Both the position numbers and the translations under genes were made by a program. Under the pieces are notes generated by a model. That model was given only the letters and a program-made list of their open reading frames with translations, made no database searches and was not told the origin of the DNA. From the IMG/VR virus record IMGVR_UViG_3300006923_000022, positions 1 through 62,449 of that record: a DNA stretch of 62,449 bases. One strand, given 5' to 3'. The number at the start of each line of letters is the position of its first letter. Position 1 is the first letter of the stretch. Shown one piece after another: positions 51,904-58,948 of the stretch. Source of the stretch: a virus. Lineage: Duplodnaviria; Caudoviricetes.

Positions 51904-51985
51904 ACTATTTATAACGAAATGGGCGTTCGCGTCCATGAGTCCATATATTTTAATATGAGACTCAGCTATTATATCTATGGAGGAT
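51904..51985 (+). promoter_or_regulatory. Late motif plus structured 5' leader (two hairpins)
   Basis: ACTATTTA at 51904-51911; ATGGGCG-TTCG-CGTCCAT at 51919-51936; GAGTC-CATAT...ATATG-A-GACTC at 51937-51963; GGAGG SD. Confidence 0.6.
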
Positions 51986-51991
51986 TAAAAA

Positions 51992-53398
51992 ATGGCTTAT
52001 AAATTTAACGTGGGGACCTTTAATATTAAAGGTGCCATTGATATGAGTTCAGCTACATCTGTTGCTCATAAAGACCTATCAGTAGCAACAGCTGACCTTG
52101 CTGCTGACGCAGTTGACGGTACTAAACTTGCTGATGATGCTATTGATTCAGAACACTATACAAACGGTTCGATTGATGGAGCTCACATTGCTGATAATGC
52201 AATTGATTCACAACACTATGCAGACGTTTCAATTGATTCAGCTCACATTGCTGATAATGCAGTAACCCTTGCTAAAATGGATGGTATTGCCCGTGGTAAA
52301 ATCATTGTTGGTGATGCTGCTGGTAACCCTTCGGTTCTTGCAGCTGGAGCTGTCGGCAAAATTCTTGTTGCCGATGGTTTTGGTGACCCTTCTTGGACCA
52401 CCATGGCAGGCGATGCTACTATAAGCGGTGGTACACTAACTATTGCTGACAATGCGATTGATAGTGACCAATATGTTAATGGCTCAATCGATCTTGTTCA
52501 CATGAGCGCAGCTTCAGTTGGTACTGATCAGTACGTTACCGCTTCAGTGGTGAACGTCCACTTGGTGAATGACGGTATCACTATTTGCGGTACAGACACC
52601 TCACTCGGTGGTTCTATCGCTGCTAGTGTTATTGCTACTGCTATTGATAGTGAAGACATGGCAATTACAGGCTTGACTGACCTTGACGTCAAGTCTGCTG
52701 GTAACATTACTATTCTTGACACAGTTGGAGCTAATACTCTTACTGTTGGTGCTGCTAGCACAACTGTTTCTATCGCTGGTAATTTAGCTGTTGCTGGAAC
52801 AACCACAACAATTAATTCAACTGATCTTCTTGTTGCAGACAAAATCATTCAAGTTGCTGCTGGCGCATCCAACCAAGCCACATCTAAAGATTCAGGTCTT
52901 TTGTTCGGTTTAGGTGATGTTAATGGTGCTCGACTCCTTTATGAAGTTGATGCTGGCAACAGTAACAATCAAGAATTAGTTGCAAGACAAGGTACCGGTA
53001 CAAATAGCGCTAGTCTTATTAGCATTAAAGCTAAAGATTTTATTGGTGATGGATCAGGTTTGACTGGCATTTCTGCTGATGCTGCTAGTGCAATGAGACA
53101 TACTATGAGTAACATTACAGCTTCTAACACAATTTCTGCTGTGGGAATGGTTATTTGCAATCTTCAACCCAGTACAGCTGGTATATTGACGATTAGTGGG
53201 TCTTTCACACAAGGTGATCAGATTCTTGTTAAAGCTGGTTCGAATGTTGACACTACCGCTACTTTGACAGTTACTGGTGCTGCTGGTTATGGATATAACT
53301 TTGATGGTGCTCAAACTGCCGTATTAGAATCGCCTCGTGCAGGTTTCACTCTTGTTTATGATGGAGATGCACCTAACGCTCTATGGCACATTATGTAA
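51992..53398 (+). CDS. Fibre protein with 10-aa ADNAIDS.HY repeats
   Basis: ADDAIDSEHY/NGSIDGAHI/ADNAIDSQHY repeats; GNL.V.GTTTTINST...V.DK fibre motif; shared C-terminal module. Confidence 0.65.
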   Translation: MAYKFNVGTFNIKGAIDMSSATSVAHKDLSVATADLAADAVDGTKLADDAIDSEHYTNGSIDGAHIADNAIDSQHYADVSIDSAHIADNAVTLAKMDGIARGKIIVGDAAGNPSVLAAGAVGKILVADGFGDPSWTTMAGDATISGGTLTIADNAIDSDQYVNGSIDLVHMSAASVGTDQYVTASVVNVHLVNDGITICGTDTSLGGSIAASVIATAIDSEDMAITGLTDLDVKSAGNITILDTVGANTLTVGAASTTVSIAGNLAVAGTTTTINSTDLLVADKIIQVAAGASNQATSKDSGLLFGLGDVNGARLLYEVDAGNSNNQELVARQGTGTNSASLISIKAKDFIGDGSGLTGISADAASAMRHTMSNITASNTISAVGMVICNLQPSTAGILTISGSFTQGDQILVKAGSNVDTTATLTVTGAAGYGYNFDGAQTAVLESPRAGFTLVYDGDAPNALWHIM

Positions 53399-56218: not shown

Positions 56219-58033
56219 ATGTCTATAATTGAAAAATTAACAGAAGGCATCGTCAACCGTGATATGAAAGCGGAAGGTAGTGCACTTCTAAACAAGTGGT
56301 CCTCAACTGGACTTCTTGAGGGTCTTGAGACCCAACATAAAAAGGCGACAATGGCTCGTCTTTTGGAAAACCAAGCAAAAGAACTTCTTCGAGAGTCTTC
56401 TAGCATGGCTGCTGGTGACGTTGAAGGTTTTGCTGCTGTTGCTTTCCCTATCGTTCGTCGTGTATTCGCCGGACTTATTGCAAATGATCTTGTAAGTGTT
56501 CAACCGATGTCTTTGCCATCTGGCTTGATCTTCTTCTTAGATTTCAAATTCTCACCAGATGCTGGTGGAACTACTGCTGTAATGCCTCGTATGGGTAATG
56601 CTGCTGAAGGTTCTATCTATGGTACTGATAAGTTAGGTTCAGGAATCATTGATGGTGTTAATCTTGTTGATGCTGGTGGAAAAGAAGATTTTAGTGGTCC
56701 CGGTCGTGGAGGATCTGTAGGTTATGCTTATGCATCTCCAAGCGGCTCTATTGCTGCTGTTGCTACTGGTGACGGTCGCGCACTCGTCTTTGATCTAGAT
56801 GGTGCTGTAACGGACGCAAACAAGAAAATCATTAAGTTTGATCCTGATCTTTTAACTATTGATGATAGTACTTATAAAATTGTCGTTGTAGATCTTAAAA
56901 CCTCAGCATTTACTTGTTCCACTGGTGATGTTGATTATGACAATCTATCTGCATTCCAGTTTGACGTTACTGACTTAGCTACAGATATTACTGCTGTTTC
57001 TAATTCAGCTACAATGAAGCAAATCCGTCGTTTGACTGATAAGGTTACTACTGCTGAGTCTTTGAATGGTCAAGGCGAATCAGTTCGTTTTATCTTCTCA
57101 ATTGAGACCGGCGGAGCCGCTGTCGCTGTTCAAGCTGCTTTGGCTAACGCCACCAACGCTGCTCATATTACAGTTCCTATCAAGGATCAATATGACAACG
57201 TTGGCGCAACCTCGGTTGGTGCCATTGTTGGTGATTTATTTGCACTTGAAGGGTTAGCAGAAATCCCAGAAATCGACATCAGTGTTGATTCAACTGCGAT
57301 CACAGCCCAGACCAAGAAGCTTAAAGCTAAATGGACACCTGAGTTGGGTCAAGATTTGAATGCTTACCATAATATTGATGCTGAAGTTGAATTGACTTCT
57401 ATTCTTTCTGAGCAAATTGCTCTTGAGATTGACCGTGAGATCCTTGCTGACCTTGTAAATGGCGCAACTGCTGCCACTTACTACTGGGCTCGTTCTCCCG
57501 GACTATTTGTAAACAGAGAAACTGGTACTGAAATTGGTGCAACTTCTGCTGCTCCTGACTTTACCGGAACTGTTTCTGAATGGTATGAGACTCTTATTGA
57601 AACTATCAATGACGTTTCTGCTCAAATCCACAGAAAGACACTTCGTGGCGGAGCTAACTATGTAGTTTGTTCTCCTGAAGGTGCTAATATCCTTGAGTTC
57701 ACCTCTGGATTCCGTGCTAACGTAACTGCTGACGCTGATAAAGGTGACATTGGTGCTGTTAAGGCCGGAAGTCTTTCTCGCAAGTTCGACGTTATCGTTG
57801 ACCCTTACTTCCCTCGTAACTTAATGCTCGTTGGACGTAAAGGTGGTTCTTTCTTAGAATCAGGTTACGTATATGCACCTTATGTGCCTCTACAAGTAAC
57901 TCCAACTATCTTCGGACCAGAAGACTTTGTTCCTCGTAAAGGTGTAATGACTCGTTATGCTAAGAAGATGGTACGTCCTGACATGTACGGTCTTGTTATC
58001 ATTCGTGGTCTCCTTGGCGAATCTGGAGCTTAG
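56219..58033 (+). CDS. Major capsid protein (T4 gp23-like)
   Basis: LLENQ, VSVQPM..PSGL.F.L, KLKAKWTPELGQDLNAYH.IDAE.EL..ILSE.I.LEIDREI, YAPYVPL, GVMTRY; TAAGGAGG SD. Confidence 0.95.
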   Translation: MSIIEKLTEGIVNRDMKAEGSALLNKWSSTGLLEGLETQHKKATMARLLENQAKELLRESSSMAAGDVEGFAAVAFPIVRRVFAGLIANDLVSVQPMSLPSGLIFFLDFKFSPDAGGTTAVMPRMGNAAEGSIYGTDKLGSGIIDGVNLVDAGGKEDFSGPGRGGSVGYAYASPSGSIAAVATGDGRALVFDLDGAVTDANKKIIKFDPDLLTIDDSTYKIVVVDLKTSAFTCSTGDVDYDNLSAFQFDVTDLATDITAVSNSATMKQIRRLTDKVTTAESLNGQGESVRFIFSIETGGAAVAVQAALANATNAAHITVPIKDQYDNVGATSVGAIVGDLFALEGLAEIPEIDISVDSTAITAQTKKLKAKWTPELGQDLNAYHNIDAEVELTSILSEQIALEIDREILADLVNGATAATYYWARSPGLFVNRETGTEIGATSAAPDFTGTVSEWYETLIETINDVSAQIHRKTLRGGANYVVCSPEGANILEFTSGFRANVTADADKGDIGAVKAGSLSRKFDVIVDPYFPRNLMLVGRKGGSFLESGYVYAPYVPLQVTPTIFGPEDFVPRKGVMTRYAKKMVRPDMYGLVIIRGLLGESGA

Positions 58034-58070
58034 TCCTTGACTGAGTAAGAAGATAACCTTAAAATGAAAT

Positions 58071-58100
58071 GCCCCTTATCTTCGGATTTGGGGCTTTTCT
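58071..58100 (+). terminator. Intrinsic terminator with UU/UU internal loop
   Basis: GCCCC-TT-ATC-TTCG-GAT-TT-GGGGC-TTTT after the MCP. Confidence 0.8.
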
Positions 58101-58122
58101 ATTTCTAGATACTAATTACTAC

Positions 58123-58210
58123 GACTTGAATTCTGGTCTCCTTTGAGCGAGGCCCCTGCTCACTGTCTCTACCGGAATGGGGCTGGTAGAAACTGACCAG
58201 AAAACGGGTC
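58123..58210 (+). ncRNA. Candidate structured RNA: three-way junction with complementary loops
   Basis: P1 58131-58138/58195-58202 (extended by 58123-58128/58205-58210); P2 58144-58148/58158-58162; P3 58168-58175/58183-58190; loops CCCC and GGGG; preceded by ACTAATTA at 58111-58118. Confidence 0.6.
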
Positions 58211-58236
58211 CATAATTATAAAAAAGGAGAAATATT

Positions 58237-58686
58237 ATGGGAAATCGAAGAATGGGCTTAGGCCGAATGGAAAAACTGTTAGAAACAGTAGATAGAGATT
58301 TAGATCTCACAAACTCAACATTGACAGCGCCAAGCATCTCAGGTGCCGCAGCTTTGTCTTTAGGCACAGAAGCCATTACTGCTGCTGGAGCTGCTAGTAT
58401 AACTGTACCAGTATCTCTTGTTACGTCAGATGGTGACACAATGGCTGTTACATTGGCTAATGGTACAACTGTTGGGCAGCTTAAATACTTTGTAAGCTTA
58501 CATGCTACAAACGCGTTTCAAGTAACTCCAGCTACAACAGCTGGGAGTTATAATACTTTTACTCTGACCAACATTGGTGAAACAGTGACTTGTATTTGGA
58601 CTGCTTCTGGTTGGGCATTACTCAGCAGATCAAGCGGTGCCGCAGAAGCTGTTAATTCAATTGCTGCTGCTCCTCTCGTGCAATAG
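58237..58686 (+). CDS. Small beta-rich virion protein (possible capsid decoration/fibre)
   Basis: Directly after the MCP; VTLANGTTVGQLK...TLTNIGETVTCIW resembles the fibre-cluster C-terminal module; AAAGGAGA SD. Confidence 0.55.
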   Translation: MGNRRMGLGRMEKLLETVDRDLDLTNSTLTAPSISGAAALSLGTEAITAAGAASITVPVSLVTSDGDTMAVTLANGTTVGQLKYFVSLHATNAFQVTPATTAGSYNTFTLTNIGETVTCIWTASGWALLSRSSGAAEAVNSIAAAPLVQ

Positions 58687-58712
58687 TAAAGAGTTTCAAA
58701 AGAATACCACAC

Positions 58713-58750
58713 AAACCTCCTTCCTTTTGGTTGGGGGTTTTCTTTTTTTT
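58713..58750 (+). terminator. Intrinsic terminator with UU/UU internal loop
   Basis: AAACCTCC-TT-CC-TTTT-GG-TT-GGGGGTTT followed by a T run. Confidence 0.75.
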
Positions 58751-58780
58751 AAAAACTATTTAATAAACCAAGGAGACAAA

Positions 58781-58912
58781 ATGAAAGAACAAAGAATCCA
58801 AGTTTTAGAACAACAAGTCCGAGACCTTCAAGAACAACAAAAGAATCTTTTAGAATACATAAAAGAGTTAGCATTAACCATTACAGAAACCAGAGTGGAC
58901 AAAAGCGATTAA
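58781..58912 (+). CDS. 43-aa coiled-coil peptide
   Basis: ACTATTTA at 58755-58762 and AAGGAG SD precede ATG 58781 (MKEQRIQVLEQQVRDLQEQQ...). Confidence 0.6.
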   Translation: MKEQRIQVLEQQVRDLQEQQKNLLEYIKELALTITETRVDKSD

Positions 58913-58948
58913 TGATACTATTTAGTATAATATCACAAGGAGACAAAT

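Follow-up and report, generated by a model that had tools for sequence, protein, structure and literature searches.

The window analysed here is the whole 62,449-nucleotide (nt) stretch of IMG/VR virus record IMGVR_UViG_3300006923_000022, a 62-kb fragment of an uncultured virus that amounts to about one third of the genome. At positions 58123-58210 of the window, we found a structured RNA element that belongs to a conserved family of leaders and lies between two genes. Upstream of it, the open reading frame (ORF) at 56219-58033 encodes a gp23-type major capsid protein (PHROG 138, E-value 1.7e-71), and downstream of it an ORF for a 149-residue product begins at position 58237. The element comprises an outer stem (P0), a closing stem (P1) and two hairpins (P2 and P3) with mutually complementary loops (L2 and L3), and the junction strand between P1 and P2 (J1/2) is complementary to the Shine-Dalgarno (SD) sequence of the downstream ORF. 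The features of the locus are as follows; MFE denotes the minimum free energy structure.

58071-58105, + strand: intrinsic-terminator-like hairpin of the major capsid gene, GCCCC 58071-58075 with GGGGC 58090-58094, then a T-rich run (read from the sequence)
58111-58118, + strand: promoter-like motif ACTAATTA of the ACTAHTTA class, 4 nt ahead of the first paired base
58123-58128 and 58205-58210, + strand: outer stem P0, GACUUG with CGGGUC, including three G-U pairs (in the MFE)
58131-58138, + strand: 5' strand of P1, UUCUGGUC (DNA TTCTGGTC), pairing with 58195-58202
58137-58144, + strand: junction strand J1/2, the anti-SD UCUCCUUU (DNA TCTCCTTT), exact complement of the SD AAAGGAGA
58144-58162, + strand: hairpin P2, UGAGC 58144-58148 with GCUCA 58158-58162, loop L2 GAGGCCCCU
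58152-58156, + strand: L2 half of the kissing helix, GCCCC
58165-58193, + strand: hairpin P3, 58168-58174 with 58184-58190, loop L3 GGAAUGGGGC
58179-58183, + strand: L3 half of the kissing helix, GGGGC
58195-58202, + strand: 3' strand of P1, GACCAGAA (in the MFE and by covariation)
58223-58230, + strand: Shine-Dalgarno region AAAGGAGA, 6 nt ahead of ATG 58237, predicted unpaired in the window's variant
58237-58686, + strand: ORF of 149 amino acids (aa), with an arginine-rich N-terminus MGNRRMGLGRME, one predicted helix and then a predicted beta-sandwich
58720-58747, + strand: terminator-like hairpin (58720-58737) and T run after the ORF (terminator scan)

RNAfold was used to calculate the structure of the element, and the MFE of -35.7 kcal/mol was found for the same three-way junction that the initial annotation had drawn by eye. 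Shuffled sequences averaged -24.7 kcal/mol (z-score -3.41), and 1 of 200 shuffles was as stable. Upon reading of the sequence, P0 as an extension of P1, the stems P1, P2 and P3, their loops and the anti-SD 8-mer were all located where that annotation had placed them, and its description of a GC-rich stretch in AT-rich DNA was borne out by a G+C content of 54.5% for 58123-58210 versus 38.8% for the window. On the + strand of the 62-kb window, the anti-SD 8-mer TCTCCTTT has just two occurrences. The proposed loop-loop pairing of CCCC (58153-58156) opposite GGGG (58179-58182) also stood, although its extent had to be corrected: G58152-C58183 adds a fifth pair, so that the kissing helix joins 58152-58156 with 58179-58183. 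This fifth pair competes with G58175-C58183, which had been counted as the eighth pair of P3 (TCTACCGG 58168-58175 with CTGGTAGA 58183-58190). At its base, P3 is extended by G58165-C58193 and U58166-A58192 across a 1x1 loop. The opposite strand folded almost equally well (z-score -3.18); fold energy alone therefore proves little, and the case for the structure rests on its homologues.

A search of IMG/VR with the capsid protein gave 597 relatives, of which the best 80 loci were retained. A covariance model of the element matched once in the window and once in each of 10 of the 80 capsid loci (E-values of 1.1e-12 or lower), and the next match had an E-value of 0.05. At least 250 nt past the capsid gene were present in 74 of these loci, so that about 10 of the 74 carry the element. 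Three DNA-pattern scans extended the set to at least 93 matches (91 distinct), and the family is larger than this sample. As evident from the matches, the genomic position of the element is fixed. Wherever more than 300 nt of DNA preceded the element (48 instances), the capsid gene was found upstream, and every readable downstream ORF (51/51) begins with the arginine-rich motif MG(N/S/K)RR(L/I/M)(G/S)xxR. Exactly one copy was present in each of the three genomes that are at least 98% complete (98-100%; 185-195 kb). A blastn search with 57900-58700 against cultured phage records returned no match. For a loop-anchored pattern run on genome contigs, the 27 inspected of at least 120 matches, selected for a regional G+C below 0.5 or for loops scored as complementary by an unreliable criterion, were G+C-rich or unrelated DNA, a result that is uninformative on cellular genomes and hosts.

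The pairing of the element was strongly supported by covariation. In a MAFFT alignment of 50 unique leaders, 94.0% of the paired positions were standard pairs, compared with 33-46% when the partners were slid by 1-3 columns, and 18 of the 31 pairs had changed on both sides. The covariation score of this alignment was 0.395 against 0.162 for shuffled alignments, and none of 500 shuffles reached 0.395. With the 91 distinct sequences aligned to the model, the corresponding values were 94.7% versus 32-45%, with 21 of 31 pairs changed on both sides and again 0 of 500 shuffles; this alignment was fitted to the model and is biased towards it. Among the 91 sequences, the six pairs of P0 were formed in 87-91, and two of them (columns 5-106 and 9-102) had changed on both sides; P2 was paired in 98.9% of cells, with 3 of 4 pairs changed on both sides, and P3 in 95.1%, with 6 of 8 pairs so changed. 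The kissing helix gave the clearest signal of all: its five pairs were present in 91/91, and no half-changed or unpaired sequence was seen. In particular, column 37-72 of the kissing helix was C-G in 77 sequences and G-C in 14, while column 38-71 was A-U in 65, G-C in 19 and C-G in 7, and four Watson-Crick versions of the helix were found (GCCCC/GGGGC, GCCAC/GUGGC, GCGGC/GCCGC and GCCGC/GCGGC). Covariation across these 91 relatives supports every helix and the loop-loop pairing, for which the initial annotation had suggested this test.

The first of the search patterns fixed parts of both loops, and the sequences were collected a second time by means of a pattern whose anchors lay solely in P0, in the CUCCU strand and in the hairpin further downstream. 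This flank-anchored collection gave 96 unique matches, 26 of them unrelated DNA. All 70 real ones, 66 recognised by script and 4 by eye (in the latter the closing pair of P3 had changed from C-G to U-A), carried the L2 motif and complementary loops. One G-U pair was invariant (91/91) and many U-G pairs were present; on the other strand these would be A-C mismatches, which indicates that the functional molecule is + strand RNA. The fold is a genuine, strongly covarying leader RNA family, and computation could hardly establish its structure any better.

Two other readings of the segment were set aside. A leader peptide could open at ATG 58177, which begins 12 codons in the window, but this ATG is absent in relatives such as locus L036 (GGAAUAAGGGG). 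An ORF on the reverse strand at 58119-58439 was left aside on the grounds that the G-U pairs point to + strand RNA.

The relatives fall into two subtypes with the same overall architecture and distinct local features. The subtype of the window, subtype A (24 unique leaders), has a G+C-rich P1 of 8 base pairs (bp), a short strand between P2 and P3 and the loops GCCCC/GGGGC. Its P1 exists in at least six sequence versions with the pairing kept, and 4 of the 8 pairs had changed on both sides in a MAFFT alignment of 17 distinct cores, in which four sequences lay one column off and lowered the count. In the comparison with the closest relative, L001, the segment from the promoter-like motif to the ATG was identical at 125 of 126 positions, compared with 56/77 in the terminator spacer, 246/305 over the last 300 nt of the capsid gene and 274/300 over the first 300 nt of the ORF; identity in the flanking coding DNA lay at 77-91%. 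The sole difference in the leader, A58196G, converts a U-A pair of P1 to U-G and keeps the pair.

Subtype B accounts for 85 of the 93 matches and has an A+U-rich P1 and longer junction strands that contain the near-invariant stretches AGAAAG and UCAUUGA. It also carries an extra hairpin, P4, with a palindromic tetraloop (GUUAUUGCAAUAAC, GUUAUCGAUAAC, GGUUACGUAACC or GGUUAACGUUAACC; examples are L005:2050-2068, L059, L116 and L123), which is absent from the window. The first three bases of P4 are the last three of the 3' strand of P0, and the two helices are therefore mutually exclusive. P4 was paired in 96.8% of cells and no pair had changed on both sides; we regard the hairpin as conserved rather than proven. 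Its closing pair was G-C in 49/91 and G-U in 42/91, and closing by G-U speaks for an RNA rather than a DNA operator.

The anti-SD strand is conserved. The core (U/C)CUCCU was found in 11/11 model hits, namely the window and the capsid-derived loci, and in all 24 unique subtype-A leaders, for which the search pattern did not constrain the anti-SD. A contiguous helix of 5-12 bp between anti-SD and SD can be formed in 93/93. For subtype B, RNAfold predicted two competing folds, one with P0/P1 closed and the SD free and the other with P0/P1 open and the anti-SD paired with the SD. The latter encloses P2, P3 and the extra hairpin, so that P2 and P3, and hence the kissing helix, are present in both folds. 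The energy difference between them (anti-SD fold minus junction fold) had a median of -0.5 kcal/mol and a range of -6.6 to +3.4 kcal/mol, with 56 of the 85 within 2 kcal/mol. For the 44 subtype-B leaders in which it was calculated, the predicted probability of SD:anti-SD pairing lay between 0.06 and 1.00. On these model energies an anti-SD switch is plausible for subtype B and doubtful for the window's subtype A, the values for which are given below with the weighing of the proposed mechanism.

To compare the element with known RNAs, Rfam 15 (4227 models) was searched. At gathering thresholds there were no matches in the whole window and none in eight loci that included both subtypes. At E-values up to 10, six chance-level matches were obtained in 57950-58350 and none of them lay over the junction; the best of these weak matches, GA-cis, scored 20.4 bits against a threshold of 34.7 and lay on the opposite strand, over the terminator. 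The models for purine riboswitches, the signal recognition particle (SRP) RNA, pRNA and ribozymes gave no match in this region even at E-values up to 10, and the known self-cleaving classes (hammerhead, twister, twister-sister, pistol, hatchet and HDV-like) had no model match. ARAGORN found no tRNA or tmRNA gene in the window. The initial annotation had recognised no match of the primary sequence to a known RNA, and the covariance-model search likewise finds no family.

With the purine riboswitches (RF00167), including the add adenine riboswitch, the element shares a three-way junction, a loop-loop contact and a position in a 5' leader, and it resembles them solely in its architecture. In the add riboswitch, the loops are preorganised and adenine stabilises P1 and frees the SD, which makes it a translational 'on' switch. 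Closing of P1 competes with a fold that sequesters the SD in add, and for subtype B of the element the same competition is predicted. In contrast to the purine riboswitches, the element shows no sequence or model similarity to them, its kissing helix consists of five covarying Watson-Crick pairs, it has an additional P0, its junction strands differ and one of them is itself the anti-SD, and its putative target is a virion protein. Like the element, the pRNA of phi29 (RF00044) comes from a phage and contains a three-way junction as well as two mutually complementary loops. It is a separate non-coding transcript that acts by intermolecular loop pairing in the packaging motor of a small podovirus, whereas the element is an mRNA leader in a T4-type phage of about 190 kb, is contiguous with an SD and an ORF, and is not matched by the pRNA model.

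Both T4 gp32 and ribosomal proteins regulate translation from their own leaders. The T4 gene 32 leader pseudoknot, which is mentioned in passages of PMC10690425, resembles the element as a pseudoknotted, gene-specific phage leader beside the ribosome-binding site; its architecture is different, and the putative target here is a late structural protein instead of a nucleic-acid-binding one. The same paper draws on viral data sets and presents over 10,000 candidates for structured RNAs, and its reference list cites the IMG/VR v3 paper. According to the passages available, its catalogue holds similar objects, namely covarying intergenic motifs in uncultured phages, some of them cis-regulatory and upstream of structural genes; candidates ahead of gp32 and ahead of a capsid gene are mentioned there, and none that follows a T4-type capsid gene. 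Full-text literature searches found no description of the motif, and since the candidates of PMC10690425 sit in its supplements, it may already have been catalogued there. The motif is not in Rfam and is apparently undescribed and uncharacterised.

The closest cultured relatives of the capsid protein are those of Flavobacterium phage immuto (45% identity), Microcystis phage Mel-JY01 and Rhodothermus phage RM378. Passages of PMC4360716 name the neighbourhood of these capsid relatives 'Far-T4'. The source of the window is probably an uncultured marine phage of the T4 superfamily that is 'Far-T4'-like, a label assigned from sequence comparison and not from a tree. The terminator-like hairpin of the capsid gene at 58071-58105 has an interrupted stem and was omitted by a simple terminator scan; a comparable G+C hairpin with a T run was also found 3' of the capsid gene in related loci, and there too it is followed by a motif of the ACTAATTA type. 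In the window, ACTAHTTA had 19 matches, all 19 of them on the + strand, compared with 10.2 expected over both strands, and none of 100 shuffles reached 19. The 19 copies span 19553-62047 and mostly lie 20-40 nt ahead of an SD and a start codon. ACTAHTTA is thus a candidate late-promoter consensus for the rightward-transcribed late genes of this phage group. The late promoter of T4 is TATAAATA, from which ACTAHTTA differs.

The leaders that follow these motif sites were compared. Ten of the 19 were short and unstructured (19-37 nt, MFE 0 to -4.2 kcal/mol), whereas the leader studied here, with 121 nt and -36.3 kcal/mol, was the most stable of all. Apart from it, only one of the leaders behind the motif sites of the window is clearly structured: at 51904-51994, a leader of 83 nt that forms two stable hairpins (-20.2 kcal/mol) follows a ACTATTTA motif and precedes an SD and an ATG. 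Two further ACTATTTA motifs, at 58755 and 58917 (window 58755-58948), lie less than 200 nt past the terminator of the 149-aa ORF, each with its own SD and ATG. Judging from this arrangement, the two motifs may head separate and very short transcription units, of which one would carry an ORF of fewer than 40 aa. On the basis of the terminator-like hairpin at 58720-58737, the 58237 unit looks monocistronic.

The 149-aa product had no match in Pfam, PHROG or cultured phages (tblastn included). We found 97 database relatives, all unnamed, and many of them matched just the first 18-28% of the query with 70-96% identity. The family (58237-58686; relatives P0048-P0098) is modular, and a conserved N-terminal part is joined to unrelated C-terminal parts of 130-370 aa, as is seen in exchangeable virion-surface domains. 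An AlphaFold model from a 48-sequence alignment had a mean predicted local distance difference test (pLDDT) score of 77.7 and predicted an N-terminal helix followed by a beta-sandwich. Foldseek identified the N-terminal domain of the Acinetobacter phage Solidus gp83 tailspike as the top match to the sandwich (E-value 2.1e-5), with residues 1-335 of CBA120 TSP4 (3.8e-4) also found. Weaker similarity was found to the capsid spike of Pseudomonas phage Pa223 (0.012) and to T4 gp9/gp10, and many uncharacterised viral proteins matched as well. As judged from the model, the product is likely a virion-surface appendage with a conserved anchor and a variable outer domain, similar to a capsid spike.

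Homologues of this protein that start with MG(T/S)KR(V/I/L)G(L/W)AR lacked the motif, yet their genes stand behind long structured leaders of 65-119 nt, which belong to at least three other recurring types (loci L010-L014, L018, L032, L035, L039, L042, L044-L046, L049-L051, L053, L055, L060 and L064). In one of these alternative types, a decoy GGAGA is paired with UCCUUU upstream of the real SD. Other types of gene in the slot after the capsid gene had short or single-hairpin leaders. Leader control seems to be a property of the gene family that is achieved by different RNAs.

Parts of 57600-58800 are held by 24 public sequencing runs, six of which are RNA libraries; four of the six were examined. 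In three of these four runs, from three studies, contigs covered 58146-58371 and linked the 3' two-thirds of the element with the SD and the start of the ORF, and one contig was identical to the window over 58159-58274. No contig from the four runs covered 58010-58132 or extended past 58371, and no start site could be read. These contigs weakly suggest that the element is co-transcribed with the ORF.

Taken together, a cis-regulatory role of the element is well supported by its position between the promoter-like motif and the SD, its single copy per genome and its fixed gene association. As the best explanation, to which we assign a probability of roughly 0.55, the element would be a 5' leader, carried by a late monocistronic mRNA that encodes a capsid-spike-like protein, and would tune translation through two folds and an effector; the transcription start, the translational control and the effector are what we infer in this explanation. 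The RNA would fold from about its first nucleotide into the closing stem P0+P1 bearing P2 and P3, with the loops joined by the 5-bp kissing helix. In this junction fold, P1 and the junction would take up the anti-SD strand UCUCCUUU and leave the SD free. In the alternative fold, P0/P1 would open and the anti-SD would pair with the SD, while P2, P3 and the kissing helix would be retained. Translation would be favoured once an effector, which could be an ion, a phage protein or a small molecule, binds the conserved junction and loops, by analogy with the action of adenine on the add riboswitch. The window's subtype, with its G+C-rich closing stem, would rest in the SD-free state and may be constitutively 'on' or weakly switching.

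Several points weigh against this explanation, most of all for the window itself. In subtype A the junction fold was favoured by 4.6-16.5 kcal/mol (8 sequences), and for the window the values were -36.3 kcal/mol for the junction fold and -31.2 kcal/mol for the anti-SD fold, a difference of +5.1 kcal/mol with a predicted SD:anti-SD pairing probability of 0.00 and a free SD. Because the junction fold is dominant, nearest-neighbour modelling does not predict a switch for the window sequence. The initial annotation had proposed cis-regulation of the gene at 58237, and this proposal is supported by position, gene association and single copy, with switching through the anti-SD strand as its putative part. 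J1/2 of the window might nevertheless form a second pseudoknot with the SD, a structure outside the scope of the folding program, and the fold energies omit the kissing helix and co-transcriptional folding. The covariation between anti-SD and SD that the initial annotation had suggested as a check, judged by eye in a 52-sequence alignment, was uninformative; the sequences on either side hardly vary, and the SD has reasons of its own to be conserved, which makes this comparison unusable. Among the eight leaders of this alignment with GGAGG as the SD, CCUCCU was present in two (L116 and L123), and the other six had UCUCCU, which pairs through a G-U pair. The promoter role of ACTAHTTA is read from its strand bias, the RNA-library contigs reveal neither their strand nor transcript ends, DNA may be present in such libraries, and a virion structural gene is an unusual target for a riboswitch. 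The support is wholly computational, and the effector is putative.

In a rival reading, no switching occurs. The element would then be a constitutive structural leader whose fold at the 5' end shields the mRNA against 5'-end-dependent decay or leaves the SD clear, with fixed high expression. A 5'-terminal stem is known to protect against such decay, which involves RNase E and RppH, and the first paired base lies 5 nt past the motif in all aligned leaders, as would be expected of a protective stem. Such a leader would also fit the junction-dominated subtype of the window, with its free SD, and the single leader hairpin of other genes in the same slot. However, a simple hairpin would suffice for this purpose, and most late-type leaders are unstructured (10 of the 19 motif sites). 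The near-invariant junction and loops, the covarying 5-bp kissing helix and the conserved anti-SD exceed what stability needs, and the main subtype is poised between two folds; we therefore regard a purely constitutive role as rather unlikely. A more distant group of alternatives comprises a trans-acting or assembly RNA that forms pRNA-like multimers, a self-cleaving ribozyme and an antiterminator like put of HK022. The complementary loops might pair between molecules, P2 and P3 are unequal in length (4-5 bp versus at least 8 bp), and the element is located directly past a promoter-like motif, as put RNAs are located directly after a promoter. The element nevertheless runs into the SD and start codon with no terminator between, RNA-library contigs join it to the ORF, and no pRNA, SRP or ribozyme model matched at E-values up to 10. 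T4-type phages package their DNA by a protein terminase, which also counts against an assembly RNA. Nothing was found in favour of the multimerising assembly RNA that the initial annotation had offered as its alternative, and this whole group is very improbable.

Two further proposals are special cases of the best explanation and differ in the nature of the effector. If the leader is a protein-binding operator, the spike-like protein, unassembled and with its arginine-rich N-terminus, or another late protein would feed back on translation. The one-to-one gene association (51/51) and the single copy per genome are typical of autoregulatory leaders, the N-terminus MGNRR(L/I/M)G(R/A)(K/R)RL is arginine-rich, and the other long structured leaders of homologous genes suggest a gene-specific need for leader control. 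On the other hand, homologues starting with MGTKRVGLAR lie behind unrelated-looking leaders, so that this N-terminus is not tied to the element, and its conservation is equally explained by a capsid anchor before a variable outer domain. We consider such an operator a tentative proposal, improbable as it stands. If the effector is instead a metabolite or ion, the element would be a riboswitch of a new class, in which the ligand binds the junction, stabilises P1 and frees the SD. Its architecture is of the purine-aptamer type, with a junction, a preorganising loop contact, conserved junction strands and covariation; a strand of P1 overlaps the anti-SD, and the two folds of the main subtype are nearly isoenergetic. 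But the putative target is the gene of a virion protein and not a metabolic or transport gene, the element is limited to a single phage clade and a single gene and offers no clue to a ligand, and the window's subtype is predicted to be locked on, which together make a small-molecule or ion riboswitch quite unlikely. It is conceivable, though doubtful, that the element is the aptamer of a new class of riboswitches or effector-sensing leaders that gates translation of a capsid-surface spike, with the G+C-stemmed subtype of the window as a 'locked-on' derivative.

The fold is compact (about 88-105 nt) and occurs once per genome in widespread uncultured marine T4-type phages. It offers a convenient model, namely a three-way junction whose two loops join in a 5-bp helix, in two natural subtypes of which one is predicted to be bistable and the other locked. 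To our knowledge, structured effector-sensing leaders are familiar for bacterial metabolic genes and hardly known for phage structural genes. If the element does not sense an effector, it would still be a well-defined new RNA family for Rfam. If it is such an effector-sensing aptamer, a virion structural gene would be under the direct control of a cellular or phage signal in abundant marine phages of the Far-T4 type. With sensing, these phages would time or dose a capsid-surface protein through RNA, by means of a new aptamer architecture.

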